Origin: Patescibacteria group bacterium
GTDB lineage: Bacteria; Patescibacteriota; Minisyncoccia; Phycocordibacterales; PALSA-1337
DNA length: 64,000 nucleotides
Direction of reading: 5' to 3'
Assembly (NCBI GenBank): GCA_038065415.1
Contig: JBBTRA010000006.1
Span: 15,262 to 79,261 of the forward strand
Shown here: in pieces, positions 3,018 through 60,695 of the stretch
Numbering within the stretch: position 1 is the first letter of the stretch
How the letters are laid out: every line of letters begins with the position of its first letter
The notes under the pieces: model-generated
Told to the model about the DNA's origin: nothing
Database searches by the model: none
Seen by the model: the letters and a program-made list of their open reading frames with translations, nothing else
Position numbers and translations under genes: made by a program

Positions 3018-4109
3018 TTAGTATTCGTGTTCAGCGATCACATACTTCTTCATTTTGTTGTACAGCGTTTGTCGGCCAATACCAAGGTGCTGTGCGCTTA
3101 CAAGCTTGTTGCCCCCGAATTGGTTCAGTGCTTGTACGATCAGGACTCTTTCCGCTGACTCCATGACGGTTAAGGGGATGATACGGTCGATTCCGCTGAT
3201 TGGTTGTCCAAACTGCGTATTCGGTCGAACTCTCAGACGGAGATCTTGTGGTTCGATCGTTCCGGTACCATTGGAGTAGCGTATGCCGCGCATGATGCAG
3301 TTACGCAGTTCGCGCACATTACCTGGCCAACAATGACTCTTGATGAGCTGTTCTGTTTCAGCGCTCAAGATTTTCTGGCGATTGGAGTACTGGTCGACGA
3401 AGTGGCTGGCCAAACGCACCAGGTCATCCACCCGCTCGCGCAAAGAGGGAACCTCGATGACGAACTGCTCGATGCGGAAGTATAGATCTTCTCGGAACAT
3501 GCCTTCATCGACCATCTTGTGAAGATCACGGTTGGTTGCTGTGATCAGGTTGAAGTCCGAATGAATTCTGGTACTGCCACCGACGCGCTGGAACTCGTGA
3601 TCTTGCAGAACACGGAGCAATCCCGCCTGCAAATGGAGAGGTAACTCTCCGATTTCATCGAGGAATACAGTACCTCCATCCGCAAGCTCAAAAGCACCTT
3701 TGCGCTGGAGGATTGATCCGGTGAATGCGCCCTTTTCATGCCCAAACAGTGCGCTTTGCATCAATTCGGGTGTCAGATTGGCGCAGTCAACTATCGATAG
3801 GTGAGCCCTCCCACGCTTTCCTCGCTGGTGCAGAGCTTTTGCTATGAGTTCTTTGCCGGTACCGTTCTCCCCCAGAATCAGCACAGCCTCGACATCAAGG
3901 GATTGGTCCAATTGACGAACCACTTCCTTCATTTTTGAATCACGGCACTCCCTGAGAAGTTCATACGGAGTAAGACCATGATCTATTTCTGGGAGATGTT
4001 GAGGCTCTTCTACGGGCGCTGGTTGAGGTGATGGTTGAAGTTCTGGCGGTGGGGCTGGCTTGGGAGGCGGCTCATGCATCCCCAGGCATATAAATGGTTT
4101 CTTCTCCAT
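3018..4109 (-). CDS. Sigma-54-dependent transcriptional activator (AAA+ plus Fis-type HTH) with no receiver domain and a Pro-rich N-terminus
   Basis: Walker A GENGTGKE, GAFTGS motif (ESALFGHEKGAFTGS), C-terminal HTH QHLGIGRQTLYNKMKKY. Likely start is ATG 4109, preceded by AAGGAGAG; the track ORF extends to a TTG at 4175. Confidence 0.8.
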   Translation of the reverse strand: MEKKPFICLGMHEPPPKPAPPPELQPSPQPAPVEEPQHLPEIDHGLTPYELLRECRDSKMKEVVRQLDQSLDVEAVLILGENGTGKELIAKALHQRGKRGRAHLSIVDCANLTPELMQSALFGHEKGAFTGSILQRKGAFELADGGTVFLDEIGELPLHLQAGLLRVLQDHEFQRVGGSTRIHSDFNLITATNRDLHKMVDEGMFREDLYFRIEQFVIEVPSLRERVDDLVRLASHFVDQYSNRQKILSAETEQLIKSHCWPGNVRELRNCIMRGIRYSNGTGTIEPQDLRLRVRPNTQFGQPISGIDRIIPLTVMESAERVLIVQALNQFGGNKLVSAQHLGIGRQTLYNKMKKYVIAEHEY

Positions 4110-4270
4110 AAGGCAGTCTCTCCTTGGTTGTGATTTTTCAAAACGTCTGGCAGTACTTTGCTCCTCAAATGACAAAATGTCAAGCCGCGATCTGGTGGTG
4201 TTGAATATATAAAAAATCCCACAACGTTTCCGTTGTGGGATTGGGACACACTGTTATGCCGAGGCAATGT

Positions 4271-5745: not shown

Positions 5746-7494
5746 ATGCTCGTCGAAGATACCCAGCTGTACAAATTCATCCTGGACTCCGGACTCGTTT
5801 CCAAGGAGGACCTTGAAGATGCGCGCAAAGAGGCCGACAAGAAGGGAAAACGCCTCGGTGCTATTCTGGTAACCCAGGGCAAGATTACGGCCGACAATCT
5901 ACGCCGTATGGAGGCATACTGTCTCGGCATCCCTTTCGTTGATCTAAAGGGCAGGAAGATAGATTTTGATACACTCTCGCTCATTCCAGAGCCGATCGCT
6001 CGTGGACACAGCATTGTTGCTTTCAAGAAAACAGACAGCTCGCTCGAGGTCGCTATGCTCGATGTGAACGACCTTTCGGCTATCGATTTCATCAAGAAGA
6101 AGGTCAATCTCAAGATCCAGCCACGTCTCACTGATTCGGACTCTATCAAAGAAGTGCTGGTGCAGTATCAAAAGAGTCTCAAAGCAGAATTTGGAGATCT
6201 CATCCAGAAAGAGACGGCCACACTGAAGACTATCGCCGAAGATGCGGGAGACTCCACTTCCGAGGCAGACATGAAGAAGTTGGCAGAGGATCTGCCAGTT
6301 GTGCGCATCGTTGATACGCTCATCAAGCATGCTGCTATCCAAAATTCGTCCGATATCCATATAGAACCAATGGAGGATCAGGTGCTCGTCAGGTATCGTA
6401 TCGACGGTCTGCTTCACGATGCGATGGTTCTGCCGCGTCAGGCTGGACCATCCGTATCCGCTCGTATCAAAGTGCTCTCCAACCTTAAGCTCGATGAGAA
6501 GCGCCTTCCGCAGGATGGTCGTTTCAAAGTAGACATGAATGGGGAGAAAGTTTCATTCCGTGTCTCGATATTGCCGACCTATTATGGTGAGAAGATCGTG
6601 ATGCGTCTCCTCCGTGAGAGTATTTCCGGATTTACGCTGGAGTATCTCAATTTCCATGGGGAGGGACTTGAGCGCATCCACAAAGCTCTCAAGCAAACGA
6701 CGGGTCTCATCCTCACTACTGGTCCGACTGGTTCTGGTAAAACCACGACCCTCTATACAATGCTTGATCTCCTCAATCAGCCTGATGTGAATATTTCAAC
6801 CATTGAGGACCCGATCGAATACCAGATGGCGCGCATCAATCAAACTGCTGTACGTCCTGATATTGGTTTTACTTTTGCAAGTGGTATCCGTACACTCGTC
6901 CGTCAGGATCCGGATATCATCATGGTGGGAGAGATCCGCGACAATGAGACTGCGGCACTGGCCGTCAATGCAGCCCTCACGGGTCACCTCGTGCTCTCGA
7001 CGCTCCATACCAATAGCGCTGCAGGCGCCATGCCACGCCTTCTCGATATGGGAGTCGAATCATTCTTGTTGGTGTCTACTCTCAATATCGTGATCGGACA
7101 ACGTCTCGTCCGTCGCCTCACAGACACCAAACAGCAGTACAAGCTCACTAAGGACGAATTTGCAGAGCTGGAAAGGCTTGCAGATATGGATCGCGTGCTC
7201 GCTGCTCTCAAAGCAGACAAAGTGATCAAGCCGAGTGATACATGGAAAGACCTCCCATTCTGGAAGGCTACTCCACAAGGAGATGATGACGGCTTCAAGA
7301 CTCGTGTTGGTATCCATGAAATTCTCAAGATGAGTCCGAGTATCAAGGATCTTGTCATGAAAGGAGCTACCTCGGCGGAGATAGAGGTGCAGGCCAAGAA
7401 AGAGGGGATGCTCACAATGTTGGAGGATGGTATCTACAAGTGTGTGACAGGATTGACCACGATAGAGGAGGTGTTGAGGGTGGTGAGCGAGTAA
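5746..7494 (+). CDS. pilB: Type IV pilus assembly ATPase PilB (GspE family)
   Basis: N-terminal GspII_E_N-like domain, Walker A GPTGSGKTT, Asp/His boxes. ATG 5746 sits 10 nt after an extended -10 TGATATAAT (5727-5735); the track start 5719 is a GTG. Confidence 0.9.
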   Translation: MLVEDTQLYKFILDSGLVSKEDLEDARKEADKKGKRLGAILVTQGKITADNLRRMEAYCLGIPFVDLKGRKIDFDTLSLIPEPIARGHSIVAFKKTDSSLEVAMLDVNDLSAIDFIKKKVNLKIQPRLTDSDSIKEVLVQYQKSLKAEFGDLIQKETATLKTIAEDAGDSTSEADMKKLAEDLPVVRIVDTLIKHAAIQNSSDIHIEPMEDQVLVRYRIDGLLHDAMVLPRQAGPSVSARIKVLSNLKLDEKRLPQDGRFKVDMNGEKVSFRVSILPTYYGEKIVMRLLRESISGFTLEYLNFHGEGLERIHKALKQTTGLILTTGPTGSGKTTTLYTMLDLLNQPDVNISTIEDPIEYQMARINQTAVRPDIGFTFASGIRTLVRQDPDIIMVGEIRDNETAALAVNAALTGHLVLSTLHTNSAAGAMPRLLDMGVESFLLVSTLNIVIGQRLVRRLTDTKQQYKLTKDEFAELERLADMDRVLAALKADKVIKPSDTWKDLPFWKATPQGDDDGFKTRVGIHEILKMSPSIKDLVMKGATSAEIEVQAKKEGMLTMLEDGIYKCVTGLTTIEEVLRVVSE

Positions 7495-12899: not shown

Positions 12900-13928
12900 T
12901 CACGCAGCCACTGCGTGGGGATGGAGCAGGTCCTCGATGATCTGCTTGACCTCAATGGGTGTGATACGACTGCCAGTAGCCCGGGGACTACCGCCGATCG
13001 TGTCGCCTCCACCCCAGTGGTTCACTGTATCGCCCTCGTGTTCGTCGAGTGTGCTCAAAATTTCGGTCACGGGGAATGGTATGAATATCGACCGCCTGCC
13101 GATCGAATAGGTGTACCTGCTATTACCCAGAGCTTTTGCAGCCACAAAGGCGTTGATGCCGTTGGCATACATTCCGATGCGCGCATTGAAGCCAATTTCT
13201 CGCACCATGGACCAACCGGTCCCGGTGTCGATAACTTCATAGCGAACATCGAGTTCGAGTTTTTCGCCGCCGCCGGCGAGCGTCCGACTGATACGGTCAC
13301 ATCCTGCGTCGATGATCGAGCGGAACTCCACAGGATCGCGACGCGCAAGAGCCCCGTTGAGCCGGGCGATCTTGTAGTGTTCGAATACCCAGTTGTTCTC
13401 CATGATCGCGGGCATCTGAGGCGAGAAGCCGTAGGCGCCAGCGGTTGTGTCGAGTAGGTCTTCGACGTTGATGATCCGATTCAGGATAGGGTTCGAGGTA
13501 GTTTCCACACGATGTGCATTCTGGAATGACCACACAGTAGCGGTCACATCCTCATCGCAGTCGTTCATCCAGAGGTGCAGTTCACCAGCGCCTTCGAGTG
13601 CGCGCATGAGTCCGCTCCTGATGAGTATGTTTGCCTGGGCTGCGGTGCAGCGAGTTGTCAGACGATCGCAACCCTCATGATGGTTGAGGTTGAGTATTTT
13701 TCGTAGCGGATCCCATTGCACGGGTCCGTACACGTATCCATCGATGGCGATTGATCCGGGGGGTGATTTGGCGCGGAACTCCTCCCAGCTGAGCGGGGGA
13801 GTATTGGGCTCTATGTGCAGAGTCACTTTCATACGGTTTTTCAAAGATCGCTGGATAGCTTCGAGGCTCTGGCAGCCTGATCCAGGTACTACGATACAAT
13901 ATTTATCAAGATTAGTAAAGTGTACCAA
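12900..13928 (-). CDS. Conserved hypothetical protein, possibly ASKHA or hydantoinase-like
   Basis: 342-aa ORF with motifs EVIDTGTGWSMV and HWGGGDTIGGSPR; family not confidently recognised. Confidence 0.45.
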   Translation of the reverse strand: MVHFTNLDKYCIVVPGSGCQSLEAIQRSLKNRMKVTLHIEPNTPPLSWEEFRAKSPPGSIAIDGYVYGPVQWDPLRKILNLNHHEGCDRLTTRCTAAQANILIRSGLMRALEGAGELHLWMNDCDEDVTATVWSFQNAHRVETTSNPILNRIINVEDLLDTTAGAYGFSPQMPAIMENNWVFEHYKIARLNGALARRDPVEFRSIIDAGCDRISRTLAGGGEKLELDVRYEVIDTGTGWSMVREIGFNARIGMYANGINAFVAAKALGNSRYTYSIGRRSIFIPFPVTEILSTLDEHEGDTVNHWGGGDTIGGSPRATGSRITPIEVKQIIEDLLHPHAVAA

Positions 13929-33572: not shown

Positions 33573-34184
33573 ATGCAGAACAATAATCAATCGAAATTGC
33601 AGGCGTACATATTCATCGGACGATCCGGGTGTGGCAAGGGTACACAGTCAGAACTCTTGACCAAGAAATTGAGAGAGTCTGACTCGAATATCAAGATATT
33701 GCATATCGAGAGCGGCAATGAGCTTCGCAAATTTGCCAAGGAGGAGAATTATACAGCCATTCAAGTCAAGAAAATCCTCTCAGAAGGAGGTTTGATGCCA
33801 GAATTCATCCCGGGATATTTGTGGGGCAAACTGTTCGTGGATGGATTCACGGGGAATGAGACATTGATATTCGATGGGACACCTCGCAAGCTCCTTGAGG
33901 CGAAGATCCTTGATTCACTTTTTCCTTTTTATGATATCGATAAGCCGTGGGTTGTCTATCTCGACGTGAACCACGAGGAGTCGACCAAGCGTCTCAAGGG
34001 ACGTGGTCGATCTGATGATACTGAAGAGGCAATCAAGAGGCGTATGGAGTGGTATGAGAACGATGTTAGGCCTTCGGTTGAGTTCTACCGTGCCAATCCC
34101 AATGTGAGATTTGTCGACATCGATGGTCATCGACCTATTGACGAAGTACATGCCGATATTGTAAAAAAGGTCGGTTTGGTGTAA
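33573..34184 (+). CDS. adk: Adenylate kinase
   Basis: P-loop GRSGCGKGTQ; NMP-binding and LID-like regions. Confidence 0.85.
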   Translation: MQNNNQSKLQAYIFIGRSGCGKGTQSELLTKKLRESDSNIKILHIESGNELRKFAKEENYTAIQVKKILSEGGLMPEFIPGYLWGKLFVDGFTGNETLIFDGTPRKLLEAKILDSLFPFYDIDKPWVVYLDVNHEESTKRLKGRGRSDDTEEAIKRRMEWYENDVRPSVEFYRANPNVRFVDIDGHRPIDEVHADIVKKVGLV

Positions 34185-34194
34185 TTTTGAGGGT

Positions 34195-34962
34195 GTGATA
34201 ACCATCAAGACCAAAGAAGACATCTCCATACTCCGTGAAGGGGGTAAGCGTCATGCCTATATACTCAAAGAGGTCGCTAAGCTGGCGAAACCTGGTGTGC
34301 ACGTAGCAAAGCTTGACGAGAAAGCTGTGGAACTCATCCATGAAGGAGGGGATACTGCGGCGTTTTTGAACTATCAGCCATACGGCGCATCTCGTCCGTA
34401 TCCAGCAACTCTGTGCGTCTCGATCAACGATGAGATCGTGCACGGTATACCAACTGAGGGAGACAAGGTGCTCAAGGCGGGCGATATTGTCAGTATCGAC
34501 CTGGGATTGATCCATAAGGAGCTCATCACTGATGGTGCTATAACAGTTGCGGTAGGTAAAGTTGCTCCGGAACTCGAGAAGCTTCTCATGGTAACCAAAG
34601 AAGCGCTCATGGCAGGTATCAAGGCTGCAAAGGCTGGGGCGCGAGTGGGAGATATCAGTAATGCCATACAGAAGATCGGTGTTGCTCATGAATACGGTAT
34701 AGTCGAAGAATTGGCAGGACATGGTGTCGGCTATCATGTTCACGAAGATCCCTATGTGCCAAATTTCGGGCGTGCCGGAAAAGGTGATCTCCTGAAAGAG
34801 GGGATGGTGATCGCTATTGAGCCTATGTTCAATCTGGGCACCAAGAAGATCAAGCTCGATACTGATGGATATACCTACAGGACGGCTGATGGAAGTCCGA
34901 GTGCGCATTTTGAGCATACCGTGGTCATCACCAAGAGTGGTGCAGAGATTTTGACTGCGTAG
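34195..34962 (+). CDS. map: Methionine aminopeptidase type I
   Basis: Metal ligands in DIVSIDLG, AGHGVGYHVHE, IEPMF; GTG start. Confidence 0.9.
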   Translation: MITIKTKEDISILREGGKRHAYILKEVAKLAKPGVHVAKLDEKAVELIHEGGDTAAFLNYQPYGASRPYPATLCVSINDEIVHGIPTEGDKVLKAGDIVSIDLGLIHKELITDGAITVAVGKVAPELEKLLMVTKEALMAGIKAAKAGARVGDISNAIQKIGVAHEYGIVEELAGHGVGYHVHEDPYVPNFGRAGKGDLLKEGMVIAIEPMFNLGTKKIKLDTDGYTYRTADGSPSAHFEHTVVITKSGAEILTA

Positions 34963-34971
34963 TCTGATTAC

Positions 34972-35081
34972 AGACGCAAGAGAGCACACTGTTTTCTGAG
35001 TGGTTATGTCGTGTCGGTACACTACACATCAGTATACCGTTCTGCATAACCACTCAGAAAACAGTGTGCTCTCTTGCGTCT
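34972..35081. repeat. Long perfect palindromic element, copy A: 37-bp arms around a 36-nt loop
   Basis: Left arm 34972-35008 (agacgcaagagagcacactgttttctgagtggttatg) is the exact reverse complement of right arm 35045-35081. Loop tcgtgtcggtacactacacatcagtataccgttctg. Lies between map and ndk. Confidence 0.9.
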
Positions 35082-35108
35082 CTGTACAACTAGTCCTACA
35101 ATGACCCC

Positions 35109-35717
35109 ATGACAACACACCCCAAAAAAGAACGTACGCTCGTAATCATTAAGCCTGATGGTATTCAGAGGACCCTCATCGCAGAACTCATCGGTCGGTA
35201 TGAACGCATTGGCCTCAAGATGGTCGGTATCAAGATGATGGTTCCAACGGCCGAGCTCATCGAGAAACACTATACTCTTGATTCGGAATGGCGCGTGAAG
35301 ACGGGTCTCAAAACCATAAAAGGGTACACCGATAAAGGGCTGACGCCTCCGGAGATGGATCCGCTCAAGATTACCGCCAAGATATTGACTCGACTCGTGG
35401 AATACATGACCAAAGGACCTGTCATTGCTATCGTATGGGAAGGTGCTCACGCAGTCGAAGTTGTGAGGAAACTCACGGGAAGTACCGAACCGGTTACTTC
35501 TGATGTCGGAACGATTCGCGGTGACTTGGTGCTCGACTCGTATCGTATGAGCGATGCTGATAATCGTTCCATCAGGAACCTCGTGCATGCATCTGGCACG
35601 GTCAAAGAAGCTGAAGATGAGATTGCGCACTGGTTCAAGAAAGAAGAACTCATCGATTACCATCTCGTCATGGAGCATATCGTCTACGATGTCGCTCTGG
35701 ATGACATACTCGGGTAA
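35109..35717 (+). CDS. ndk: Nucleoside diphosphate kinase with a ~50-aa internal insertion
   Basis: ERTLVIIKPDGIQR..., catalytic-His region NLVHASG; 202 aa versus ~140 in typical Ndk. Confidence 0.8.
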   Translation: MTTHPKKERTLVIIKPDGIQRTLIAELIGRYERIGLKMVGIKMMVPTAELIEKHYTLDSEWRVKTGLKTIKGYTDKGLTPPEMDPLKITAKILTRLVEYMTKGPVIAIVWEGAHAVEVVRKLTGSTEPVTSDVGTIRGDLVLDSYRMSDADNRSIRNLVHASGTVKEAEDEIAHWFKKEELIDYHLVMEHIVYDVALDDILG

Positions 35718-35953
35718 TGTGAGCTGTCAACATTGTCTCGTGAGGGAAAAGATGTCGTAACTGCACTGTGCACTTGCACTCTTGAATGAGAGGAATACAA
35801 TGAGTACAGGTTACGAAGTATTAAATCCTATACCACATCTTTCGGGAGTCCAACGAATGCTTTGCATTCACATTAGATCGCACCTTGGTGTTGATCTTGC
35901 GGGCACCCACCTAGTGTAACTAGGTTAATAATACTTCGTAGCCGATCAAGAAC

Positions 35954-35976
35954 CGTCCTCCAGAGGACGATTTTTG
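35954..35976 (+). terminator. Rho-independent terminator
   Basis: cgtcctc / cag / gaggacg followed by TTTTT. Confidence 0.55.
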
Positions 35977-36008
35977 ATTTATGGGACAAAAACGCATATA
36001 CTTACCCA

Positions 36009-36383
36009 ATGCGCACATATTTTTTCGCCCTCGTTATCCTCTCTGCAGTTCTCCTTGCGCATATGTTCGGACTCACCGGTGCATATGTAGATATAGATGG
36101 GTATGACATCATGATGCATATCCTGGGAGGAGTCGGTATCGGTCTTTTTGTAGCAGCTATCCTGAAACTTCATGGGCAACATGTGAAGCATCCACGATTG
36201 ACTATCATTTTTTGGGTGATTATCGCGGGACTTCTGTGGGAGTTTTTTGAGATATATTATGACCTCATCGGATATCCATTTGGCACCAAGGGGTATTGGG
36301 TCGACACGATCAAAGATATGATCGACGATACTATCGGGGGAGCTGTCGTGGCCTGGATAACAAATAGAAAACACGGAGTTTAG
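36009..36383 (+). CDS. Small polytopic membrane protein
   Basis: 124 aa, about 4 TM helices. Confidence 0.45.
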   Translation: MRTYFFALVILSAVLLAHMFGLTGAYVDIDGYDIMMHILGGVGIGLFVAAILKLHGQHVKHPRLTIIFWVIIAGLLWEFFEIYYDLIGYPFGTKGYWVDTIKDMIDDTIGGAVVAWITNRKHGV

Positions 36384-36403
36384 TCCGAATAACGCATACG
36401 ATC

Positions 36404-37783
36404 ATGTCTACGAAACCAAGCATCACATTTTTCACCGGCGTCAGTACTGTCACCGGTGCAAACTTTTTGCTCGATACGGGGAGTTCGAGGATACTCATCG
36501 ATTGCGGTATGGTGCAAGGGGAGCGATTTGCTACGGAAGAGAATGCCAAGCCATTTGGGTACGATGTGTCATCTATCGACGCCCTCATCATCACTCATGC
36601 GCACCTGGACCATGTGGGCAGGATCCCAAAGCTGGTGAAAGAGGGGTATCAAGGTCCGATCTACTCAACTCCAGTTACCCGCGAACTGGCCGAGCTTGTG
36701 TTGAGCGATGCGGTGGGTATCTTGGCTATGGATGCCAAGCAAAATGGTACGCTTCCTATGTATGATACCGAGGATGTACAGGCTACATTTCCGCTCTGGA
36801 AGACGATACCGTATCATGAGCAGACTGATATAACGGATGATGTCTCGGTGTTCTTGAAAGATGCGGGGCATATCCTGGGATCTGCGATGATTGAAGCGAG
36901 CATCAAGAGTCCAGGCAAAAATCCTTTGAAGGTACTTTTCACCGGTGATGTTGGCAATTCGCCAGCTCCACTCTTGTGTGACACGGAAACAGTAGGGGAT
37001 GTGGACTATATGGTGATGGAGAGCGTCTACGGCGACCGCAATCACGAGTCGAGAGCGCAAAGACTCGACCAGTTCACCAAAGTTATCAATGACACTTTGA
37101 ATCGTGGTGGCACACTAGTTATCCCTGCATTTTCGATTGATCGTACGCAACTACTTCTCTATGAGCTCAACAATTTGGTCGAGAAGAAACTGATTCCTTC
37201 AGTTCCTGTGTTCGTAGATTCTCCGATGGCCATCAAGGCGACGCAGGTGTATCAGGCTAATACAGAGCTTTTCAATGATGGGGTCAAGAAACAGATTTCG
37301 GGAGGTGACAATATTTTCGATTTCCCACACTTACAGTTCACTGTATCGCAGAATGAATCTCGTGATATTGAACGACTCAGTGGAGCAAAGATCATTCTTG
37401 CTGGCTCAGGTATGTCGGTGGGTGGCAGGGTGGTGAGCCATGAGGCGGGCTATCTTCCTGATGCTCGGAACACAATACTCCTCGTCGGATATCAGACGGC
37501 AGGATCACTCGGTCGCAAGATTGCTGATGGTTCTAAGGAGGTGACCATCCATGGTCAGAAGGTTCAGGTGAAAGCTCATGTAGAGACTTTGTACGGTTAC
37601 TCTGCACACAAGGATAGTGATCACTTGGTTGATTTTGTTGCTACAGCATCAGATCGGTTGAAGAAGGCCTTTGTGGTGATGGGTGAGCCAAAGGCGGCGA
37701 TGCATCTCGCACAGAGATTGAACGATGAGCTCGACATGGAAGCAGTGGTACCGGAAAGGTTGAAAGAGTACGAGGTCAAATAA
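36404..37783 (+). CDS. Beta-CASP family metallo-beta-lactamase-fold ribonuclease (RNase J / CPSF-like)
   Basis: HAHLDHVG (HxHxDH) motif, beta-CASP region, C-terminal RNA-metabolising domain; 459 aa. Confidence 0.75.
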   Translation: MSTKPSITFFTGVSTVTGANFLLDTGSSRILIDCGMVQGERFATEENAKPFGYDVSSIDALIITHAHLDHVGRIPKLVKEGYQGPIYSTPVTRELAELVLSDAVGILAMDAKQNGTLPMYDTEDVQATFPLWKTIPYHEQTDITDDVSVFLKDAGHILGSAMIEASIKSPGKNPLKVLFTGDVGNSPAPLLCDTETVGDVDYMVMESVYGDRNHESRAQRLDQFTKVINDTLNRGGTLVIPAFSIDRTQLLLYELNNLVEKKLIPSVPVFVDSPMAIKATQVYQANTELFNDGVKKQISGGDNIFDFPHLQFTVSQNESRDIERLSGAKIILAGSGMSVGGRVVSHEAGYLPDARNTILLVGYQTAGSLGRKIADGSKEVTIHGQKVQVKAHVETLYGYSAHKDSDHLVDFVATASDRLKKAFVVMGEPKAAMHLAQRLNDELDMEAVVPERLKEYEVK

Positions 37784-37810
37784 AAAACGCCGAGAGATTC
37801 TCGGCGTTTG
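37782..37810. terminator. Bidirectional intrinsic terminator
   Basis: A-run, cgccgaga / tctcggcg, T-run. Confidence 0.6.
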
Positions 37811-37824
37811 AGCTGGTGTGGTAG

Positions 37825-38265
37825 TTATTTCGGAATGTAAGATTTTTCGAATATGGAAGGAACATCTTCCCAGCGGTCGAATTCTCGGTATGCGAATCGT
37901 GGCAGGTTGCATTCTGTGATCATGGGAGTGGTCTCGTTTCCACGAGGAGCAACAGCCAAAACGAACGCAGGGTTCGGTTTCATGGTCACGGGGTGCCGGC
38001 GCGTGAGGCAAAATGCGACTTCCATACCCATGCCGGTCGAAGGACTCAGTGTCACAGCGATCATGGCGTCGCAATCCATGCATTGCTTATAGTCCCAGGT
38101 AAAGACAGTTCCTTTTTGAGCTTGCCGGTTGGCATCACTTCTGAAGTCGAGGACGTCATGTCCGCGATCCCGGAGTGTTGTCCTGAGTGTGAAGATACGA
38201 TCTTTCATTTTCACCCATTCCGCCTCGGCCAGGCCTTTGATGGCACATCCGACATATATTTTCAT
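37825..38265 (-). CDS. Nucleoside 2-deoxyribosyltransferase-like protein
   Basis: MKIYVGCAI... N-terminus and CDAMIAVTLSPSTGMGMEVAF (SxGxGxE) pattern. Confidence 0.45.
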   Translation of the reverse strand: MKIYVGCAIKGLAEAEWVKMKDRIFTLRTTLRDRGHDVLDFRSDANRQAQKGTVFTWDYKQCMDCDAMIAVTLSPSTGMGMEVAFCLTRRHPVTMKPNPAFVLAVAPRGNETTPMITECNLPRFAYREFDRWEDVPSIFEKSYIPK

Positions 38266-38338
38266 AATGTTCTTTCTGTTGGTTATCCTTGGCCTAGACT
38301 AGCATCGAATAAGGCTCTGTCAATGGTATGCTATATGC

Positions 38339-38896
38339 ATGATCCTCAAGAATGGAAGGCGGGTACAACTGATCGCTGAAGTGAAGGTATGCTCGCCTTT
38401 TGGTTTTACATCTGAAAAAAGCTGGGATGAACTGTTCATGATTGCTGAAAAAGCGGGCGATATGATTTCTATACATACTGATCCGCGTTGGGGAGGGTCT
38501 TTTGAGTTGATTCGAAAAGCGAAGTCATTGACGCAAAAACCGATTCTCGCAAAGGGAATACATGAGACGGATGATCTGGTTGAACAAGCTGTTCAAGCCG
38601 GCGCGGATCTTGTACTAGTTGTTGGTAGGGTGCCGCAAGTTCACATTGAGAAGTGCGTGATCGAACCCTACTCTTTAGAAGAATTGAAGACGATCCCGTA
38701 TGACATAAAAGTGGTCTGGAATAGCCGTGATCTCAAGACGGGCGGACTGAAAAAGGAGACATTCGAGCAAACTCGAACGATATTTCCTGGTTGGCTGTGT
38801 CAGGCAAGCAATATCAAGACGACCGATGACATCAAAGAAGGTGCAGATGCGGTGTTGGTAGGGGAGAGGTTGGAAGGGTTTGTTGAGTCGTTGTAA
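38339..38896 (+). CDS. Indole-3-glycerol-phosphate synthase-like TIM-barrel protein (short, orphan)
   Basis: IAEVKVCSPFG resembles the IGPS hallmark E(I/F)KRxSPSxG; 185 aa. Confidence 0.4.
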   Translation: MILKNGRRVQLIAEVKVCSPFGFTSEKSWDELFMIAEKAGDMISIHTDPRWGGSFELIRKAKSLTQKPILAKGIHETDDLVEQAVQAGADLVLVVGRVPQVHIEKCVIEPYSLEELKTIPYDIKVVWNSRDLKTGGLKKETFEQTRTIFPGWLCQASNIKTTDDIKEGADAVLVGERLEGFVESL

Positions 38897-38898
38897 AT

Positions 38899-38930
38899 AA
38901 AAAATCCCGAGGCATTCTCGGGATTTTTCG
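38899..38930. terminator. Bidirectional intrinsic terminator
   Basis: aaaaatcccgag / gcatt / ctcgggattttt. Confidence 0.65.
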
Positions 38931-38932
38931 TG

Positions 38933-39277
38933 TTACTTAACCTTGGCAACAATGCGTGCGAATGTCTCGGGCTTGAATTCTGCGAGGTGAGCGAGAGCCT
39001 TGCGATCGAGCTCAATACCTTTCTTCTTGGCAGCGCCAATGAACTTGGAGTATGAGAAACCGAGTGGACGGAGGCCGGCATTGATCTTCACATTGAAGAG
39101 GCGGCGCATGTCACCCTTCTTGTCGCGACGATGAGCGAAAGCGTAGGCACCAGCGTGCTGGAGGGCGTCGATTGCCATGCGCTCTTTCTTGGAACGACCA
39201 AAGCGCATACCTTTTGCGGCTTTGAGGACGGTGCGGCGGTATTTGAGGGCGTGAACTGCTTTTTTGACTCGTGTCAT
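38933..39277 (-). CDS. rplT: 50S ribosomal protein L20
   Basis: MTRVKKAVHALKYRRTVLKAAKG... Confidence 0.95.
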   Translation of the reverse strand: MTRVKKAVHALKYRRTVLKAAKGMRFGRSKKERMAIDALQHAGAYAFAHRRDKKGDMRRLFNVKINAGLRPLGFSYSKFIGAAKKKGIELDRKALAHLAEFKPETFARIVAKVK

Positions 39278-39296
39278 GGTAGTTGATTAAAAGTGA

Positions 39297-39488
39297 TTAT
39301 TGATTGACCAGGAAGCGGCTCTTGGCTTTGTTATCCATATGGATAACCGTCATGCGCTTCTTGTTGCCGCTGGTACGGCTGCGTTCCTTGGCATTGAAAT
39401 GGTTCTGACCAGCCTTGCGCGCCAAAATCTTGCCATTTTTGGTGACTTTGAGACGCTTCAGGTATGATTTGTTGGTTTTGATTGTCAT
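39297..39488 (-). CDS. rpmI: 50S ribosomal protein L35
   Basis: MTIKTNKSYLKRLKVTKNGKILARKAG. Confidence 0.9.
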   Translation of the reverse strand: MTIKTNKSYLKRLKVTKNGKILARKAGQNHFNAKERSRTSGNKKRMTVIHMDNKAKSRFLVNQ

Positions 39489-39499
39489 GGTAATTGTTC

Positions 39500-40009
39500 T
39501 TATTTCTTTTCGATGACGATAGTGAGTCCCTTTGGCCCCTTGGTGACATCCTGAGCTATCTTGTATTCGACGGTGATCAGTTTGAGCACACGATCGAGGC
39601 GTTCCTTGAGGAAGTTAAGATCCATGTACTTGGAACGCCCGATGAGGAAGAGGTCTACTTTGACGCGGTTACCTTCGGCGAGCCACTCAGAGACCTTCTT
39701 GGCCTTGAGTTCGAGGTCGTGTTCTCCAGTGCCGATCTTGACCTGGACGATCTTGAGCTCGCTTACCTGGACTTTGGCCTTGGCAACCTTCTCCTTCTTC
39801 TTTTCATCGTACTGATACTTGCCGTAATCCATGATCTTGGCGACCGGTGGTATCGCAGTAGGGGAGATCTCGATGAGGTCGAGTGACCTCTTTTGAGCCT
39901 CTGCCAATGCGATGTTGAGCGCTATAACACCGAGATTCTCTCCTTCGGCGGTTATGACGCGCAACTCGGGCGCTTTGATCTGATGGTTTATTTTGACGCG
40001 GATGACCAA
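39500..40009 (-). CDS. infC: Translation initiation factor IF-3 (non-AUG TTG start)
   Basis: IF-3 N- and C-domains; first codon is TTG, consistent with the atypical starts that autoregulate infC. Confidence 0.9.
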   Translation of the reverse strand: MVIRVKINHQIKAPELRVITAEGENLGVIALNIALAEAQKRSLDLIEISPTAIPPVAKIMDYGKYQYDEKKKEKVAKAKVQVSELKIVQVKIGTGEHDLELKAKKVSEWLAEGNRVKVDLFLIGRSKYMDLNFLKERLDRVLKLITVEYKIAQDVTKGPKGLTIVIEKK

Positions 40010-40052
40010 TTGATTGGGATTACAGGGGTTATTTATAGCATGCGGTTAGAGG

Positions 40053-40170
40053 AAACGCAAGGGTGCGAGATATGTATTTTCTGGGAGGTTATGTAGTGTC
40101 AGTACACGAAACTTTAGGGAACCGTTCTGCATAACCTCCCAGAAAATACATATCTCGCACCCTTGCGTTT
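40053..40170. repeat. Long perfect palindromic element, copy B: 41-bp arms around a 36-nt loop
   Basis: Left arm 40053-40093 (aaacgcaagggtgcgagatatgtattttctgggaggttatg) is the exact reverse complement of right arm 40130-40170. Loop tagtgtcagtacacgaaactttagggaaccgttctg is 26/36 identical to the copy-A loop. Sits in the infC 5' region. Confidence 0.9.
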
Positions 40171-41396: not shown

Positions 41397-41400
41397 AAAC

Positions 41401-41446
41401 AAGAAGACACAAAAGCCCCGAGTAGTCGGGGCTTTTGTGTCTTCTT
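41401..41446. terminator. Bidirectional terminator with a 21-bp perfect stem
   Basis: aagaagacacaaaagccccga / gtag / tcggggcttttgtgtcttctt. Confidence 0.6.
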
Positions 41447-41456
41447 GGGGATGTGA

Positions 41457-43241: not shown

Positions 43242-43688
43242 ATGGCCACTCTTATAGACAACGGCAAAATCCATTTCGACTACGAGATCCTGGAGACATT
43301 CGAGGCGGGTATTGAGCTGTTGGGTTTTGAGGTCAAGTCAGTGAGGGCGAAGAAGGGCTCTCTTGAAGGGTCATATATCATTGTGCGAGGAAGTGAAGCT
43401 TTCCTTATGGGTATGCTTATATCGCCCTACCAAGAGAACAACACTCCAGAAGGGTATGATCCTCGCAGGAATCGTCGCCTGCTCCTTACTGCCGAAGAAA
43501 TCAGAAAATTGGCAGATATTGGCGATGGAAAAGGCTTGACAATAGTGCCAATAAAGCTGTATAATAAAAATACGCTTATCAAGGTCTCTGTTGGTGTGGT
43601 GCGCGGCAAGAAGAAATACGACAAGCGCGAGACTACAAAGAAGAGGGAGACTGATAGGAATGTCAGAAGGGAGTTTAGAGATCGTTGA
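43242..43688 (+). CDS. smpB: SsrA-binding protein SmpB
   Basis: IDNGKIHFDYEILETFEAGIELLGFEVKS..., basic C-terminal tail. Confidence 0.9.
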   Translation: MATLIDNGKIHFDYEILETFEAGIELLGFEVKSVRAKKGSLEGSYIIVRGSEAFLMGMLISPYQENNTPEGYDPRRNRRLLLTAEEIRKLADIGDGKGLTIVPIKLYNKNTLIKVSVGVVRGKKKYDKRETTKKRETDRNVRREFRDR

Positions 43689-43706
43689 AAAATAAATAGA
43701 CTTCAT

Positions 43707-44068
43707 GGGGATGCCAGGCATAGACAGTCGACCATGTTCGTTCGTGCGGCGCGAGCACCGTTATCTCGTAAATCTGACGGAAACCCTAAATGCTAAAACA
43801 ACCTCACCGTATTTCACGGCCAAGGACTTTGCATTCGTCCCTGCATAAGGGATGCGCTCGCCCCGGGGGATTCTGACTCGGGGGCCGGGTGTTATAACCT
43901 GAATGTAGGACTGATAGAGCTTCTCGCCCTATTGTCCGAATAAAAGAGATCGTGAGTATGCGTTTTGTTTGCTTTCTTAACATACTCATTAAACTTCAAG
44001 GCATTCTACCGCCGTAGAATCGTTCGACGCATATCGATTGCACGCGAGTTCAATTCTCGCCATCTCCA
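43707..44068 (+). ncRNA. ssrA: tmRNA (SsrA)
   Basis: 5' GGGGATG pairs with 3' CATCTCC (44061-44067), including a G3-U wobble; discriminator A at 44068. 3' tRNA-like domain GCACGCGAGTTCAATTCTCGCCATCTCCACA closely parallels E. coli GGACGCGGGTTCAACTCCCGCCAGCTCCACCA. 5' GTCGAC D-loop analogue. Immediately downstream of smpB. Confidence 0.85.
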
Positions 44069-44195
44069 CAATAATTGACTTACATAGTCAAGAATATTAA
44101 GATACAGTCAGAAGTTATTTGGTGCGGACTTTCAGGTCTTAAGTGACTCCGTTTGAGATCTAGGAGTTCGTATCAAATTCAACCAAAAAGGAAGT

Positions 44196-53767: not shown

Positions 53768-56113
53768 TTATTCGAAGTGACTTTCTTTTGCTGATCGATC
53801 CACAACTTTTTTGAGCAATGGATATTTTCCGAGAGAGGTATCTTCGGCGATAAGCTTCATTGCCTCATTTCTCGCCGCTTCTACCATTTTGAGATTTTTG
53901 AGTGCTTCCATAGCTACATCTGAGACTCCCCATTGGCGTAGACCAGAGAGTTCACCGGCACCGCGCTGGGTGAGGTCGAGTTCGGCCAACTCAAAACCAT
54001 TCTTGGCTGTAGCGAGGGCCGTCAGACGCTCGATTGACTTGGCGGAATTGGTCTCAGTGAATGCATAACAGTAGGCCTGGTGCGCACTTCTCATGACGCG
54101 TCCGCGGAGCTGGTGGAGCTGGGCGAGACCAAACCGCTCAGCACCTTCGATGATGATGACTGTCGCGTTCGGTACATTGACTCCGACTTCAACGACTGAG
54201 GTGGCGCAGAGGATATTGATCTTACCAGATTTGAAGTCGGCCATTGCACGATCTTTTTCGTGAGGCTTCATCTTGCCGTGCAGGATACCGACTTCATATT
54301 CAGGGAATACCGACCGACTGAGACGAGCCGCTTCTTCCTTTACTGACTTGGCGATAACGGCTGCTTCTTTGTCCGGGTCGGGCTCATCGATGCGTGGACA
54401 GATGACATAGAGTTGTCTGCCGTCCGCGAGTTCTCTGCGGATCTTTTCATATGTTTCGCTACGCTTGTCCGGTAGAACGAGCTCGGTGATGATGGGCTTG
54501 CGTCCTGCAGGGCTCTGGTCGAGGATGGTGAGATCAAGGTCGCCATAAATAGTCAGTGCGAGGGTTCGTGGGATGGGTGTAGCGGTCATGGAAAGGAGAT
54601 GGGGAGCAAGTGCATTTCCGTGCTCCATGTTCTTCTGCACAAGTCGTTTGCGTTGGCCGATACCGAAGCGATGCTGTTCGTCGATGATGGCATATGCAAG
54701 CCGCTTGAACTTCACAGACTTCTGGATGAGTGCTTGGGTGCCTATGACTGCCGCGATCGAACCGTCGGCTACCCATTTTAAGAGTTGAGACCGTGATATA
54801 TCGGTCCAACTTTTTGGATTCACCTTGGAAGGGAACACGCGGCATCCGGAGCCTGTGATAAGTGCAATGCGTATCGGCATGTATGAGAAATACTGGATGA
54901 ATGATTCAAAATGCTGGGTGGCTAATATTTCCGTGGGACACATATATGCGATCTGAAGACGCGCGTTCATTACTGCATATGCAGTTGCTGCTGCGACGGC
55001 CGTCTTGCCAGAACCGACGTCTCCTTCGAGGAGTCTGGACATGGGCTGTTCACGTGACATATCGCCGACGATAGTCTCGATGGCTCTTTTCTGTGCATCA
55101 GTGGCCTGGAATGGGAAGCGGCGGATGAATTCATGCACATGTCCCATATCGGTCTCGAGAACGAATGAAGGGTACTGTTCGTAGAGCTTGCGAGCCTGTT
55201 GGCGTCCGAGCTGTATCATGAATATCTCTTGGAATGAGAACCGTTTGCGTGCAGACAAGGCATCATCGTGTTTCTGGGGAGCGTGCATCCAGATACATGC
55301 AGTCTTGATCCCTGGAAGGTTATATTTCTTCAGGATGTCCGCCGGAATGGGATCTTCGAGTGCATCCAAGATGCCTGTCTTGAAGAGCTTCTGTAGAGAA
55401 TGGTACATCCAAAGAGAGCTGATACCTCGGGATTCAGGGTAGACAGGATACAAGGTGTGAGATTCGCCATCAGTTCCGAAGAGTGAGTCGCCGACACCTA
55501 CCGGAAGTTTGTCGATGAGTTCGATTTTTGGGTTAGAGAAGTATAACTTCGCATTATCAGGCTCCACAAAAACAGGCTCTTCACCCACGATAGCCTTTGC
55601 TCGCATGGAGGAAGAGCTCGCAAAGGCTTCTTTTCTCGGCGTTGTGTTCGTGGTGAACGGGATACTATGTCCCAACGCCTCCGAAGAGGGATCAGAACCT
55701 ATTTTTGTTTCGCTTTCAATGCTCCTTACTTCTTTCCCCTTACTCCTCCGCTGACTGACCTTACCCTCGATACGGACGAGGGCGCCCTCGGGGGTCATTT
55801 TTGCGATATAGGGTTGATTGAACCAGATGCACTGGATCGTACCGCTCTCGTCTTCGACGGTTGCTGTGGCCATGGTCATCTTGGTCTTGAAACCCTTGGT
55901 TGCTTTGAGGTGGGTGATTTTGCCGAATATGGCAACCGCATCGCCTTTTTTGAGGGAGCTTATGCTCCGCGCCTCGGCTGTGTCACCATAGCGTACGGGA
56001 AAATGATAGAGGAGGTCTTCTAGGGTGTGTACACCAAGCTTCTTCAGTGCATCCTTCTGGATTGGTGTGATACGGAAATGCTCGGATACAGGTATATCGG
56101 GAGAGATGGGCAT
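53768..56113 (-). CDS. recG: ATP-dependent DNA helicase RecG (with a ~90-aa low-complexity insertion in the N-terminal wedge region)
   Basis: Helicase motifs GDVGSGKT, DEQHRFG and others; N-terminal wedge domain; 781 aa. Confidence 0.9.
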   Translation of the reverse strand: MPISPDIPVSEHFRITPIQKDALKKLGVHTLEDLLYHFPVRYGDTAEARSISSLKKGDAVAIFGKITHLKATKGFKTKMTMATATVEDESGTIQCIWFNQPYIAKMTPEGALVRIEGKVSQRRSKGKEVRSIESETKIGSDPSSEALGHSIPFTTNTTPRKEAFASSSSMRAKAIVGEEPVFVEPDNAKLYFSNPKIELIDKLPVGVGDSLFGTDGESHTLYPVYPESRGISSLWMYHSLQKLFKTGILDALEDPIPADILKKYNLPGIKTACIWMHAPQKHDDALSARKRFSFQEIFMIQLGRQQARKLYEQYPSFVLETDMGHVHEFIRRFPFQATDAQKRAIETIVGDMSREQPMSRLLEGDVGSGKTAVAAATAYAVMNARLQIAYMCPTEILATQHFESFIQYFSYMPIRIALITGSGCRVFPSKVNPKSWTDISRSQLLKWVADGSIAAVIGTQALIQKSVKFKRLAYAIIDEQHRFGIGQRKRLVQKNMEHGNALAPHLLSMTATPIPRTLALTIYGDLDLTILDQSPAGRKPIITELVLPDKRSETYEKIRRELADGRQLYVICPRIDEPDPDKEAAVIAKSVKEEAARLSRSVFPEYEVGILHGKMKPHEKDRAMADFKSGKINILCATSVVEVGVNVPNATVIIIEGAERFGLAQLHQLRGRVMRSAHQAYCYAFTETNSAKSIERLTALATAKNGFELAELDLTQRGAGELSGLRQWGVSDVAMEALKNLKMVEAARNEAMKLIAEDTSLGKYPLLKKVVDRSAKESHFE

Positions 56114-60243: not shown

Positions 60244-60330
60244 CGGAGACGGTGGGATTCGAACCCACGAGGGAGTTTCCCCCCTAACACCTTAGCACGG
60301 TGCCGCTTTCGACCACTCAGCCACGTCTCC
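60244..60330 (-). tRNA. tRNA-Ser (anticodon GCU), type II with a long variable arm
   Basis: Minus-strand sequence GGAGACGTGGCTGAGTGGTCGAAAGCGGCACCG-TGCTAAG-GTGTT...GTGGGTTCGAATCCCACCGTCTCCG; anticodon loop gtGCTaa; acceptor GGAGACG/CGTCTCC. Confidence 0.85.
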
Positions 60331-60595
60331 GTATATTATATTTTATCTTGAACTCCTCTCTTTTGTAACCCTTCTTACATTCTTTTTCTAGCATTCGAGC
60401 TTCTTTTTCCGATGTGCAAGCCATGGATTCTAGAAGTACAAAAGGTCTTTTTGATCGGATTGAAGGCGTCTGTCCCGAATTGTGTTCGGCAAGCCTTCGC
60501 TGCATATCGTTGGTTTTACCGATATACAAACTTTCGTCTTTTGTACTTTTTAGAATGTACACGTAATGCATAGTTTGGAATTTTAATGTACTCAT
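60317..60595 (-). CDS. GIY-YIG nuclease family protein
   Basis: HYVYILKS...LYIGKTNDMQRRLAEHNSG is a GIY-YIG motif. The 3' end (..NIRRRG*) overlaps the first 14 nt of the tRNA-Ser. Start is ATG 60595 or 60571; the track start 60682 reads through a tRNA fragment and is rejected. Confidence 0.7.
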   Translation of the reverse strand: MSTLKFQTMHYVYILKSTKDESLYIGKTNDMQRRLAEHNSGQTPSIRSKRPFVLLESMACTSEKEARMLEKECKKGYKREEFKIKYNIRRRG

Positions 60596-60644
60596 GCCGC
60601 TTTCGACCCCTGCCTGCCGGCAGGCAGGACTCAGCCACGTCTCC
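60596..60644 (-). repeat. Duplicated tRNA-Ser 5' fragment (nt 1-29) interrupted by a 20-nt perfect palindrome
   Basis: Minus strand reads GGAGACGTGGCTGAGT-[CCTGCCTGCCGGCAGGCAGG]-GGTCGAAAGCGGC, identical to tRNA positions 1-16 and 17-29 with the palindrome inserted between them; abuts the GIY-YIG start codon. Confidence 0.85.
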
Positions 60645-60695
60645 AGTTCCGCCATTCTTGCACAAAACCGTATATTTATCAAAAATCACACTCTG

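Follow-up and report, generated by a model that had tools for sequence, protein, structure and literature searches.

Two long and perfect hairpins, found in a 64,000-nt stretch of DNA from a Patescibacteria group bacterium (assembly GCA_038065415.1, contig JBBTRA010000006.1, positions 15,262 to 79,261 of the forward strand; this whole stretch is called the window below), are members of a family that recurs in related genomes, and of its reality we have hardly any doubt. We read it as a small family, not described before, of DNA palindromes that are long-lived and lie dispersed between the genes of one Patescibacteria clade (Paceibacteria/Parcubacteria); their arms would be template-copied from each other and their loop recognised in trans. 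To this reading, taken as a whole, we would assign a probability of about 0.5.

Hairpins of the window and their relatives

A check of arm complementarity bore out an earlier note on the window, which had reported two perfect inverted repeats with 37- and 41-bp arms around 36-nt loops, and its placement of both between genes (copy A between map and ndk, copy B 5′ of infC) likewise stood. In copy A (34972–35081) the arms, 34972–35008 and 35045–35081, are complementary at 100%, and in copy B (40053–40170) the 41-nt arms, 40053–40093 and 40130–40170, are equally perfect, or 44 nt long at 98% if the T.G, A-T and G-C pairs at the edge of the loop are counted in. The parts of the two copies and the promoter boxes next to them were as follows.

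34972–35008, plus strand: left arm of copy A, 37 nt, perfect complement of 35045–35081
35009–35044, plus strand: loop of copy A, 36 nt, with its core on the plus strand, TCGTGTCGGTACACTACACATCAGTATACCGTTCTG; the blocks T.GT.T..GTACAC and CCGTTCTG recur in all six complete copies of the family
35045–35081, plus strand: right arm of copy A, 37 nt, the final bases of which include TTGCGT (35074–35079), the putative ndk −35 box
35097–35102, plus strand: TACAAT, the putative ndk −10 box, outside the palindrome, with 6 nt between it and the ATG at 35109; unchanged across 7 related loci
40037–40032, minus strand: TATAAA, the putative infC −10 box, partner of the −35 box in the left arm of copy B
40053–40093, plus strand: left arm of copy B, 41 nt; 40055–40060 read on the minus strand is TTGCGT, the putative infC −35 box
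40094–40129, plus strand: loop of copy B, 36 nt, with its core on the plus strand, TAGTGTCAGTACACGAAACTTTAGGGAACCGTTCTG; identical at 28/36 positions to the orthologous loop of locus L010
40130–40170, plus strand: right arm of copy B, 41 nt, perfect complement of 40053–40093

Each of the two loops, both of 36 nt, holds GTGTCNGTACAC and ACCGTTCTG, and the 16-mer ACCGTTCTGCATAACC occurs within the window in these loops only, with 0 occurrences expected from shuffles. The loops had been described as semi-conserved, which they are, with 26 of 36 positions identical, a count that we correct to 27/36, and the common inner arm TTTTCTG.G.GGTTATG was present in A and B as had been reported. The folding energy of A and B was about −79 kcal/mol, with z at about −15 against shuffles, and they are the sole inverted repeats of such size in the window, the runner-up being a terminator at 41400–41447. 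A sub-hairpin gtgtc.gtacac and a 3′ block had also been described in the loops; the sequences are present in both, but as a conserved helix the former found little support. The GTGT/ACAC and GTACAC/GTGTAC pairings were tried and set aside, neither being consistent across copies.

Orthologous regions of relatives (given here by locus numbers beginning with L) were retrieved via homologues of Map and GreA, and the pattern GTGTCNGTACAC..ACCGTTCTG was searched for as an exact core in 185,579 species genomes, with one genome per species. The family had been called one of two copies, which holds inside the window, where a covariance-model search with its filters off gave no third, but not overall, as relatives carry more. 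Six complete copies (A, B, B′, C, C′ and D) were found over four loci, namely map|ndk, the region upstream of infC, ftsI|greA and the 3′ end of ileS, in three genomes, with covariance-model scores of 104–131 bits. Further copies and covariation, to which the earlier note had looked for a decision, were thus both at hand, the covariation being massive, and nothing that it had named as grounds for abandoning the family turned up. The copies outside the window, degenerate and truncated ones included, are listed below.

L001 2929–3042: copy C, in a Candidatus Parcubacteria metagenome-assembled genome (MAG), between ftsI/PBP2 and greA; from the exact-core scan
L010 15397–15518: copy B′, in GCA_017991475.1, upstream of infC
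L040 9803–9912: copy C′, in GCA_017991475.1, at the ftsI|greA site
L040 17733–17850: copy D, in GCA_017991475.1, starting at the ileS stop codon
L043/L044: copy C″, degenerate, in a fourth genome, at ftsI|greA; a stem of 25 bp, a T.G pair and 10 bp, with a 14-nt loop that has none of the conserved blocks
L043: copy D″, degenerate, in the fourth genome, at the ileS site; a hairpin with 2–3 arm mismatches
L015 (A site), L011 and L013 (B site), L008/L009 (A itself): copies cut off by contig ends

Copy C was the one true extra locus given by the scan of species genomes, the pattern of which was too strict, since B′, C′ and D carry GTATTT. Exact-core scans of metagenome and viral collections gave no true copy, their matches being chance matches in coding sequence, and a relaxed viral scan gave 11 matches, all of them one identical phage coding segment without a palindrome. 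Two covariance models run over ~270 kb of window and related sequence found no additional copies; the window's short-core matches, at 6884, 12656, 13722 and 33259, all fall within coding sequence and none has a palindrome, and a loop-only model matched coding sequence at 56019. Orthologous sites without the element were also seen, namely the A site in L016, L021, L034, L037 and L038 and the C site in L041/L042, none of them with a substitute terminator, and the ftsI|greA site in the window organism's own strain likewise has the empty form, ATATTTCAAGCCTTGAAATAT.

All four Logan contig ends (L008, L009, L011 and L022) stop exactly 30 nt into a perfect palindrome arm. Logan assemblies, as we take it, use k=31, and a stop 30 nt into the arm is then presumably what a k=31 graph yields at a true inverted repeat. 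The family is therefore under-represented in assemblies, and more generally palindromes of this type break k=31 assemblies, fragment genome bins of the candidate phyla radiation (CPR) and leave such elements under-represented in contig databases.

Two further structures were seen in the related loci. The B-site orthologue in L013 (9112–9191) has a rearranged centre, in which GTACAC is followed by a 24-nt perfect palindrome, GGAAACTTTCTGCAGAAAGTTTCC, and then by the contig end, and which may be either a real variant or a contig-end artefact. Another long perfect hairpin, with a loop of 63 nt between arms of 36 nt, GAAATATCCCCGCACAACATAATACTTCTTTGAAGC, lies in L021 at 13728–13862 (also at the end of L022), between rplT and a beta-CASP RNase gene; its inner arm, TACTTCTTTGA, and the start of its loop, CTGTTGTCT, are faintly like those of the family, of which it may be a distant member.

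Probable copying between arms and change in the loop

Over the six complete copies the arms, 37 to 43 nt long, form 238 pairs: 237 Watson-Crick pairs, no G-T pair and a single C/A mismatch, in B′. In the arm alignment, change on both sides was found in 36/42 pairs and change on one side in 0/42. Paired cells made up 99.6%, compared with 70.6% in column shuffles, where 0/500 attained the observed values, and only 32–58% when the partners were slid by 1–3 columns. Identity of the arms between copies is 56–76%, with outermost bases that vary by locus. The observation that outer arms differ between copies yet stay complementary within them was thus upheld, but the ends are not arbitrary, since in A and B they coincide with the neighbouring −35 boxes.

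The orthologues B and B′ allowed the same comparison at a single site. Their arms are 76–78% identical and differ by three indels and ~7 substitutions, each of them mirrored in the opposite arm, with 61% identity in the non-coding flank and 92% in the infC-proximal flank. The broken pairs numbered 0 and 1 in the two copies, whereas independent evolution of the arms would have been expected to give ~9–10 per copy. The arms diverge at about the rate of non-coding DNA, and the elements have stayed at fixed sites over long evolutionary times.

The orientation of the loop is also inconsistent. With respect to the upstream gene its core runs sense in copies A and C′ and antisense in copies C and D, and no gene lies upstream of B and B′. 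Between their orthologous flanks, C (L001) and C′ (L040) have loops that point in opposite directions, C′ and D are likewise opposite in orientation at a distance of 8 kb in one genome, and no consistent relation between loop orientation and replication was found using GC skew. This argues against a strand-specific function, of RNA or of single-stranded DNA, that is tied to flanking transcription or to the replication fork.

Selection for RNA pairing tolerates G-U pairs and occasional mismatches in a 40-bp helix and hardly mirrors indels, so that the pattern seen here instead fits templated copying from arm to arm. Of the two explanations put forward in the earlier note, selection for pairing or a palindrome-generating mechanism, it is the second that the lack of G-T pairs, the mirrored indels and the inconsistent orientation favour, and we consider it probable, judging from sequence comparison, that the arms are homogenised at the DNA level in this way and not by RNA-type selection. 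The palindrome would fold into a hairpin during replication or repair, whereupon one arm would template the other; through such intramolecular template switching (quasipalindrome correction) a mutation in one arm would be either erased or copied across, and the palindrome would perfect itself without selection on RNA pairing. The same switching could also invert the loop, and the flip between C and C′ is the outcome expected of spacer inversion by template switching.

Quasipalindrome template-switch mutation provides a published basis for this arm mechanism (PMC7202029), and perfect hairpins can be created de novo by template switching (PMC10710096). The process described there perfects imperfect repeats and creates or extends hairpins in one event (PMC7202029, PMC10710096), and it would explain mirrored substitutions, indels and loop inversion, but it is a mutational process and not an element family, and has yet to be described as a mechanism that maintains a conserved repeat family in the long term. 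The elements offer a clean natural case of palindrome arms that evolve freely and yet stay perfect, and they caution, with regard to tools such as R-scape, that very strong covariation can stem from mutational copying and not from selection on RNA.

The loop behaves differently from the arms. It is exactly 36 nt long in 6/6 complete copies, with T1, G3, T4, T6, GTACAC (positions 9–14), A16, C19 and CCGTTCTG (positions 29–36) invariant, as is the T.G pair that closes the stem on the core strand. Positions 15–28 track the locus, GAAACTTT being common to B and B′ and GAATCTC to C and C′. Positions 2, 5, 7 and 8, on the other hand, track the genome, and are T, A, T and T (TTGTATTTGTACAC) in all three copies of GCA_017991475.1, with the 5′ block reading GTGTCN in L001, L015 and the genome of the window. 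That three unlinked loci have undergone identical substitutions points to concerted evolution of the 5′ block, and because locus-specific sequence lies within 10 nt on either side, we judge a trans-acting recogniser likelier than gene conversion. From these alignments we take the loop to be under purifying selection, and we would give even odds to its being recognised in trans by a factor whose gene lies elsewhere in the genome; this factor may be the enzyme through which the element formerly spread. In C″ the palindrome persists though the loop blocks are lost, showing that maintenance of the stem is independent of the loop. The concerted, genome-specific change in the loop matters in that it points to a trans-acting partner in Patescibacteria, whose mobile-element and RNA-guided biology is poorly known.

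A more speculative variant of this proposal, to which we give rather little credence, is that the elements are display hairpins, in which a self-repairing perfect stem would present the 36-nt loop, as extruded or replicating single-stranded DNA or as RNA, to a lineage-specific, co-evolving protein, in a partnership like REPIN/RAYT or TIGR/box C/D but of a kind not yet described. Such hairpins might in addition gate the adjacent −35 boxes in a supercoil-sensitive manner.

Several points weigh against the reading of template-copied arms and a trans-recognised loop. Neither the 64-kb window nor ~200 kb of related loci yielded a transposase, HUH/RAYT enzyme, recombinase or other candidate partner, no direct repeat (target-site duplication) flanks A, B, B′, C, C′ or D, and no recent transposition event was seen; the flanks of the ftsI|greA site are a pre-existing inverted repeat and not a direct repeat. 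The density is about one copy per 14–40 kb of the sequence examined. The arms of D″ in L043, with their 2–3 mismatches, show that perfection is not absolute, and the conserved T.G pair, which is a C/A mismatch on the opposite strand, hints that one strand matters when single-stranded. The flip between C and C′ rests on two MAG assemblies, and loop orientation between perfect arms is assembler-dependent. Template switching itself is inferred from the pattern and not observed, and since homogenisation at the DNA level would erase G-U pairs with or without an RNA function, such a function is compatible with it.

Other interpretations of the loop were tried and rejected. A micro-ORF (minus-strand ATG-CAG-AAC-GG from the loop in every copy) was discarded, as 4-nt indels in the arm shift the frame and the peptides are not conserved. 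Resemblances of arm or loop, seen by eye, to dif/Xer sites, parS, sigma-54 promoters, DNA uptake sequences, integration host factor (IHF) sites and the hammerhead core were not conserved across copies. The 14-nt variable loop segments, considered as guides, had no matches in the window beyond chance.

Known systems and rival explanations

Searches for known families gave no assignment. Rfam at gathering threshold found only tmRNA and two tRNAs in the window and has no family for the element, a permissive Rfam scan gave only miRNA-precursor models at 21–27 bits against thresholds of 48–80, and BLAST against plasmid and phage collections found nothing similar. That the architecture is not that of REP (repetitive extragenic palindromic) elements, attC sites or terminators, as the earlier note had it, was confirmed. 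No intrinsic terminator was called at A, B or C, where there is no T-run and the loop is 36 nt. With regard to attC, the stems have no bulges, GGTTATG/CATAACC does not fit GTTRRRY, no integrase is encoded in the window and there is no integron context. Integron attC sites are similar in that structure is conserved over sequence, in presumed recognition of a folded single strand and in variable arm length, but differ in having R″/L″/L′/R′ boxes, strand-marking extrahelical bases and gene cassettes beside an integrase. Nor do the elements resemble an invertible promoter switch (inverton), as the segment is 36 bp, the arms are unconserved, there is no recombinase gene in the neighbourhood and the loop gave no promoter call; the loop nonetheless occurs in both orientations between orthologues.

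The elements are of the same general kind as interspersed palindromic repeats of the MITE (miniature inverted-repeat transposable element), REPIN or Correia type, organised inversely, with a conserved centre and variable arms. Like REPINs with their RAYT partner, they are intergenic hairpin DNA repeats of ~100 nt, vertical and long-lived, with compensatory changes and a presumed single-copy trans-acting enzyme (PMC3116915). REPINs differ in their invariant ends (16-mers overlapping REP), variable spacer, imperfect stems and tens to hundreds of copies (PMC3116915), whereas here the centre is conserved, the ends are variable, the stems are perfect, the copy number is seemingly low and no RAYT gene was seen. 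When the ends were read directly, they bore no consistent terminal GTAG or CGTC tag and were the most variable part, and no gene for RAYT (a Y1 HUH transposase) was found in the 64-kb window or in the annotated related loci. Correia elements (CREE/NEMIS, PMC2649163) and ERIC-type MITEs (PMC10969869, PMC2229807) are alike as ~100–150-bp intergenic palindromes that abut genes, the ends of which can supply or overlap promoter boxes and which form long hairpins when transcribed. In CREE, on the other hand, the 26-bp terminal repeats are conserved, the target duplication is TA, an IHF site is present and the hundreds of copies are near-identical, with mismatched stems (PMC2649163), and nothing of this was seen here.

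Among the alternatives, a structured RNA comes first, although we think it unlikely. The element would be a cis-regulatory element or a small RNA (an RNase III substrate, 3′-end stabiliser, terminator or protein-binding RNA), with a stem selected for RNA pairing and a functional loop. The extremely stable predicted fold of both strands and the massive covariation would suit such an RNA, as would the conserved U.G that closes the stem on the core strand in 6/6 copies, the change of G5 to A5 in GCA_017991475.1, by which a G.U pair of the possible loop mini-hairpin becomes A-U, and the start of A, C and D at 0–10 nt past a stop codon. RNA helices, however, normally show many G-U pairs and one-sided changes, and there were 0 of the former in 238 arm pairs and 0 of the latter, with indels mirrored exactly. 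With respect to the upstream gene, two copies have the sense and two the antisense orientation, the loop is inverted between C and C′, and copy B, which has no upstream gene, overlaps the infC −35 box and thus lies outside the infC mRNA. In addition, no T-tract follows the stem, no terminator was called, Rfam yielded sub-threshold noise of miRNA hairpins only, and the empty sites show that the hairpin is dispensable.

Quite improbable, in our judgement, is a classical MITE, that is, a deletion derivative of an insertion sequence (IS) or transposon with the arms as terminal inverted repeats, mobilised by a transposase encoded elsewhere. Short intergenic elements at several loci with patchy presence among relatives could be of this nature, and the outward-facing −35-like hexamers at both ends recall Correia and many IS elements (PMC2649163), although the −35 boxes are present at empty sites too. 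Terminal inverted repeats must stay conserved for recognition, whereas conservation here is lowest at the ends and highest in the centre, and the arm identity between copies (56–76%) is not that of MITE termini. Further points against mobilisation are that no target-site duplication was visible, no transposase lies at any locus, plasmids and phages hold nothing similar, and from the exact-core scans a single further true locus emerged among 185,579 species genomes, with none from the metagenome and viral collections.

We regard as a long shot a cruciform promoter element, in which negative supercoiling driven by transcription would extrude both hairpins, occlude the −35 box at the arm end and display the loop to a protein, thereby giving supercoil-sensitive control of ndk, infC, greA and a sigma-like gene. 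This would explain the indifference to orientation, since both strands extrude together, as well as the need for perfect arms and their abutting or overlapping of −35 boxes. Negative supercoiling is expected to peak between divergent promoters, which is where copy B sits, and there are precedents at bacterial promoters (PMC10325908; reviewed in PMC3176155). Empty sites, however, keep the same promoters without a hairpin, and C″ has kept its stem but lost the loop blocks. A non-palindromic centre of 30–36 nt is moreover expected to make extrusion of a cruciform energetically and kinetically costly.

The most striking likeness in anatomy is to TIGR units (PMC12045711), which are found in CPR bacteria and in which the stem varies but is palindromic in every case, the loop carries conserved motifs and the length of 36 nt recurs; the elements likewise have a variable, consistently palindromic stem around a loop with conserved motifs. 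They would then be orphan TIGR-like (box C/D-like) guide units, the 36-nt loop being a guide bound by a Nop-domain Tas protein encoded elsewhere, which we hold to be very unlikely. It is in its favour that the loop is exactly 36 nt, with a locus-specific 14-nt variable segment between conserved blocks, that a TasR clade with stem arrays occurs in CPR bacteria, and that tigRNAs are 36 nt (PMC12045711). TIGR units form tandem arrays beside a Nop-domain gene, and each unit has two spacers and a pair of box C/D motifs (PMC12045711), whereas the elements described here are solitary, 5 kb apart in the window and located between housekeeping genes. They have one variable segment in place of two spacers of 8–12 nt and no recognisable repeated C/D motif pair. 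No Tas gene is nearby, a scan of ~60 open reading frames (ORFs) of the window giving no match to Nop-domain or Tas proteins; the variable segments have no match elsewhere in the window, and loop orientation is inconsistent with transcription. As there is no adjacent Nop/Tas gene, no tandem arrangement and only one variable segment, we did not file the elements as TIGR units, and they are not assigned to the REPIN or Correia families either.

An assembly artefact or chance palindrome has a negligible probability, for although short-read assemblers mishandle palindromes and several contigs end inside elements, the flanks are unique on both sides, four independent assemblies carry the same asymmetric loop, at four loci, the Logan contigs of independent runs end exactly 30 nt inside the arm, and the chance expectation is zero.

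Genes and promoters around the elements

The window is a housekeeping region (nusA, rpoD, type IV pilus genes, tpi, pgk, recJ, rnhA, comEC, rpsL/rpsG/fusA, smpB, tmRNA, ftsH and recG). Copy A starts 10 nt past the map stop (34962) and ends 27 nt short of the ndk ATG (35109), with adk and map upstream. Copy B lies 44 nt upstream of the infC ORF (minus strand, 39500–40009), with infC, rpmI and rplT to its left on the minus strand and a plus-strand ORF of 104 aa without assigned function to its right; it is upstream of both divergent promoters and so outside any obvious transcript. C, C′ and C″ start 5–15 nt past the ftsI stop, and promoter-like boxes of the next gene closely follow A, C, C′, C″ and D. 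At the C site the hairpin is centred in a short pre-existing palindrome made up of the last ftsI codons and the greA −35 box TTGAAA, and copy D is followed after 7 nt by TTGACC, 17 nt and TAGTAT.

Upstream of ndk, TTGCnn, 17 nt, TACAAT and 6–7 nt to the ATG were kept in seven loci, with or without the hairpin, and upstream of infC, TTGCnn, 17 nt and TATAAA were kept in the window, L010/L011, L016/L017, L034 and L037, again with or without it. The putative ndk −35 box (35074–35079) is inside the right arm of copy A, and the putative infC −35 box (40055–40060, minus strand) inside the left arm of copy B. A consensus promoter scanner called no promoter at A or B, TTGCGT matching the −35 consensus at 3/6 positions, and the −35/−10 assignments at these two copies therefore rest on conservation across genomes. 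The overlap with −35 boxes at ndk and infC offers a testable link of DNA secondary structure to promoter function in minimal genomes. We put forward tentatively, as a possibility that we do not favour, that the elements act between transcription units as barriers to transcription or RNA decay and share sequence with the adjacent −35 box; that empty sites have no replacement terminator means that any such barrier function is dispensable.

Some further features of these sites were observed. The −35 boxes of the clade are TTGCnn instead of TTGACA, and TACAAT 6–7 nt before the ndk ATG in all relatives (35097–35111 in the window and its orthologues) suggests a leaderless or nearly leaderless ndk mRNA. 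The map–ndk spacer (window 34963–35108; L010 10769–11302; L012 6099–6884; L034 4989–5627) is a hot spot of accessory DNA, which holds a 154-aa hydrophobic ORF in L010/L011, a small ORF and a Fic/DOC-like gene in L012–L014, an opposite-strand HD-domain gene in L034 and hairpin A in the window. The ORFs 34135–35022 (295 aa) and 35022–35678 (218 aa) on the minus strand, antisense to map and ndk and reaching into the hairpin, are almost certainly spurious. Between convergent genes at 41400–41447 there is a perfect palindrome of 22 bp around a loop of 4 nt, which has the canonical form of a bidirectional intrinsic terminator (GCCCCGA-GTAG-TCGGGGC, together with A and T tracts) and shows that the long hairpins coexist with ordinary terminators.

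Next to copies D and D″, which differ greatly, ~140 nt upstream of a sigma70_r4/HARE-HTH gene are almost identical (L040 17851–17990 and L043 17932–18072) and may be a conserved leader or a regulatory RNA. The isoleucyl-tRNA synthetase-like gene on the other side (L040 14176–17733, L043 14139–17819, L041 12070 to the contig end) is unusually long at 1185–1226 aa, with extra NUDIX and HAD_2 Pfam matches. Elsewhere in the window, the tmRNA gene (43707–44071; 101.8 bits in Rfam) directly follows smpB (region 43242–44071). A sigma-54 interaction-domain activator with a Fis-type helix-turn-helix is encoded at 3018–4175 on the minus strand of this small Patescibacteria genome, with no sigma-54 gene seen in the window. 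Finally, at 60244–60682 on the minus strand, a 121-aa ORF of the GIY-YIG nuclease family (60317–60682) overlaps the 5′ side of a tRNA gene (60244–60330) on the same strand.

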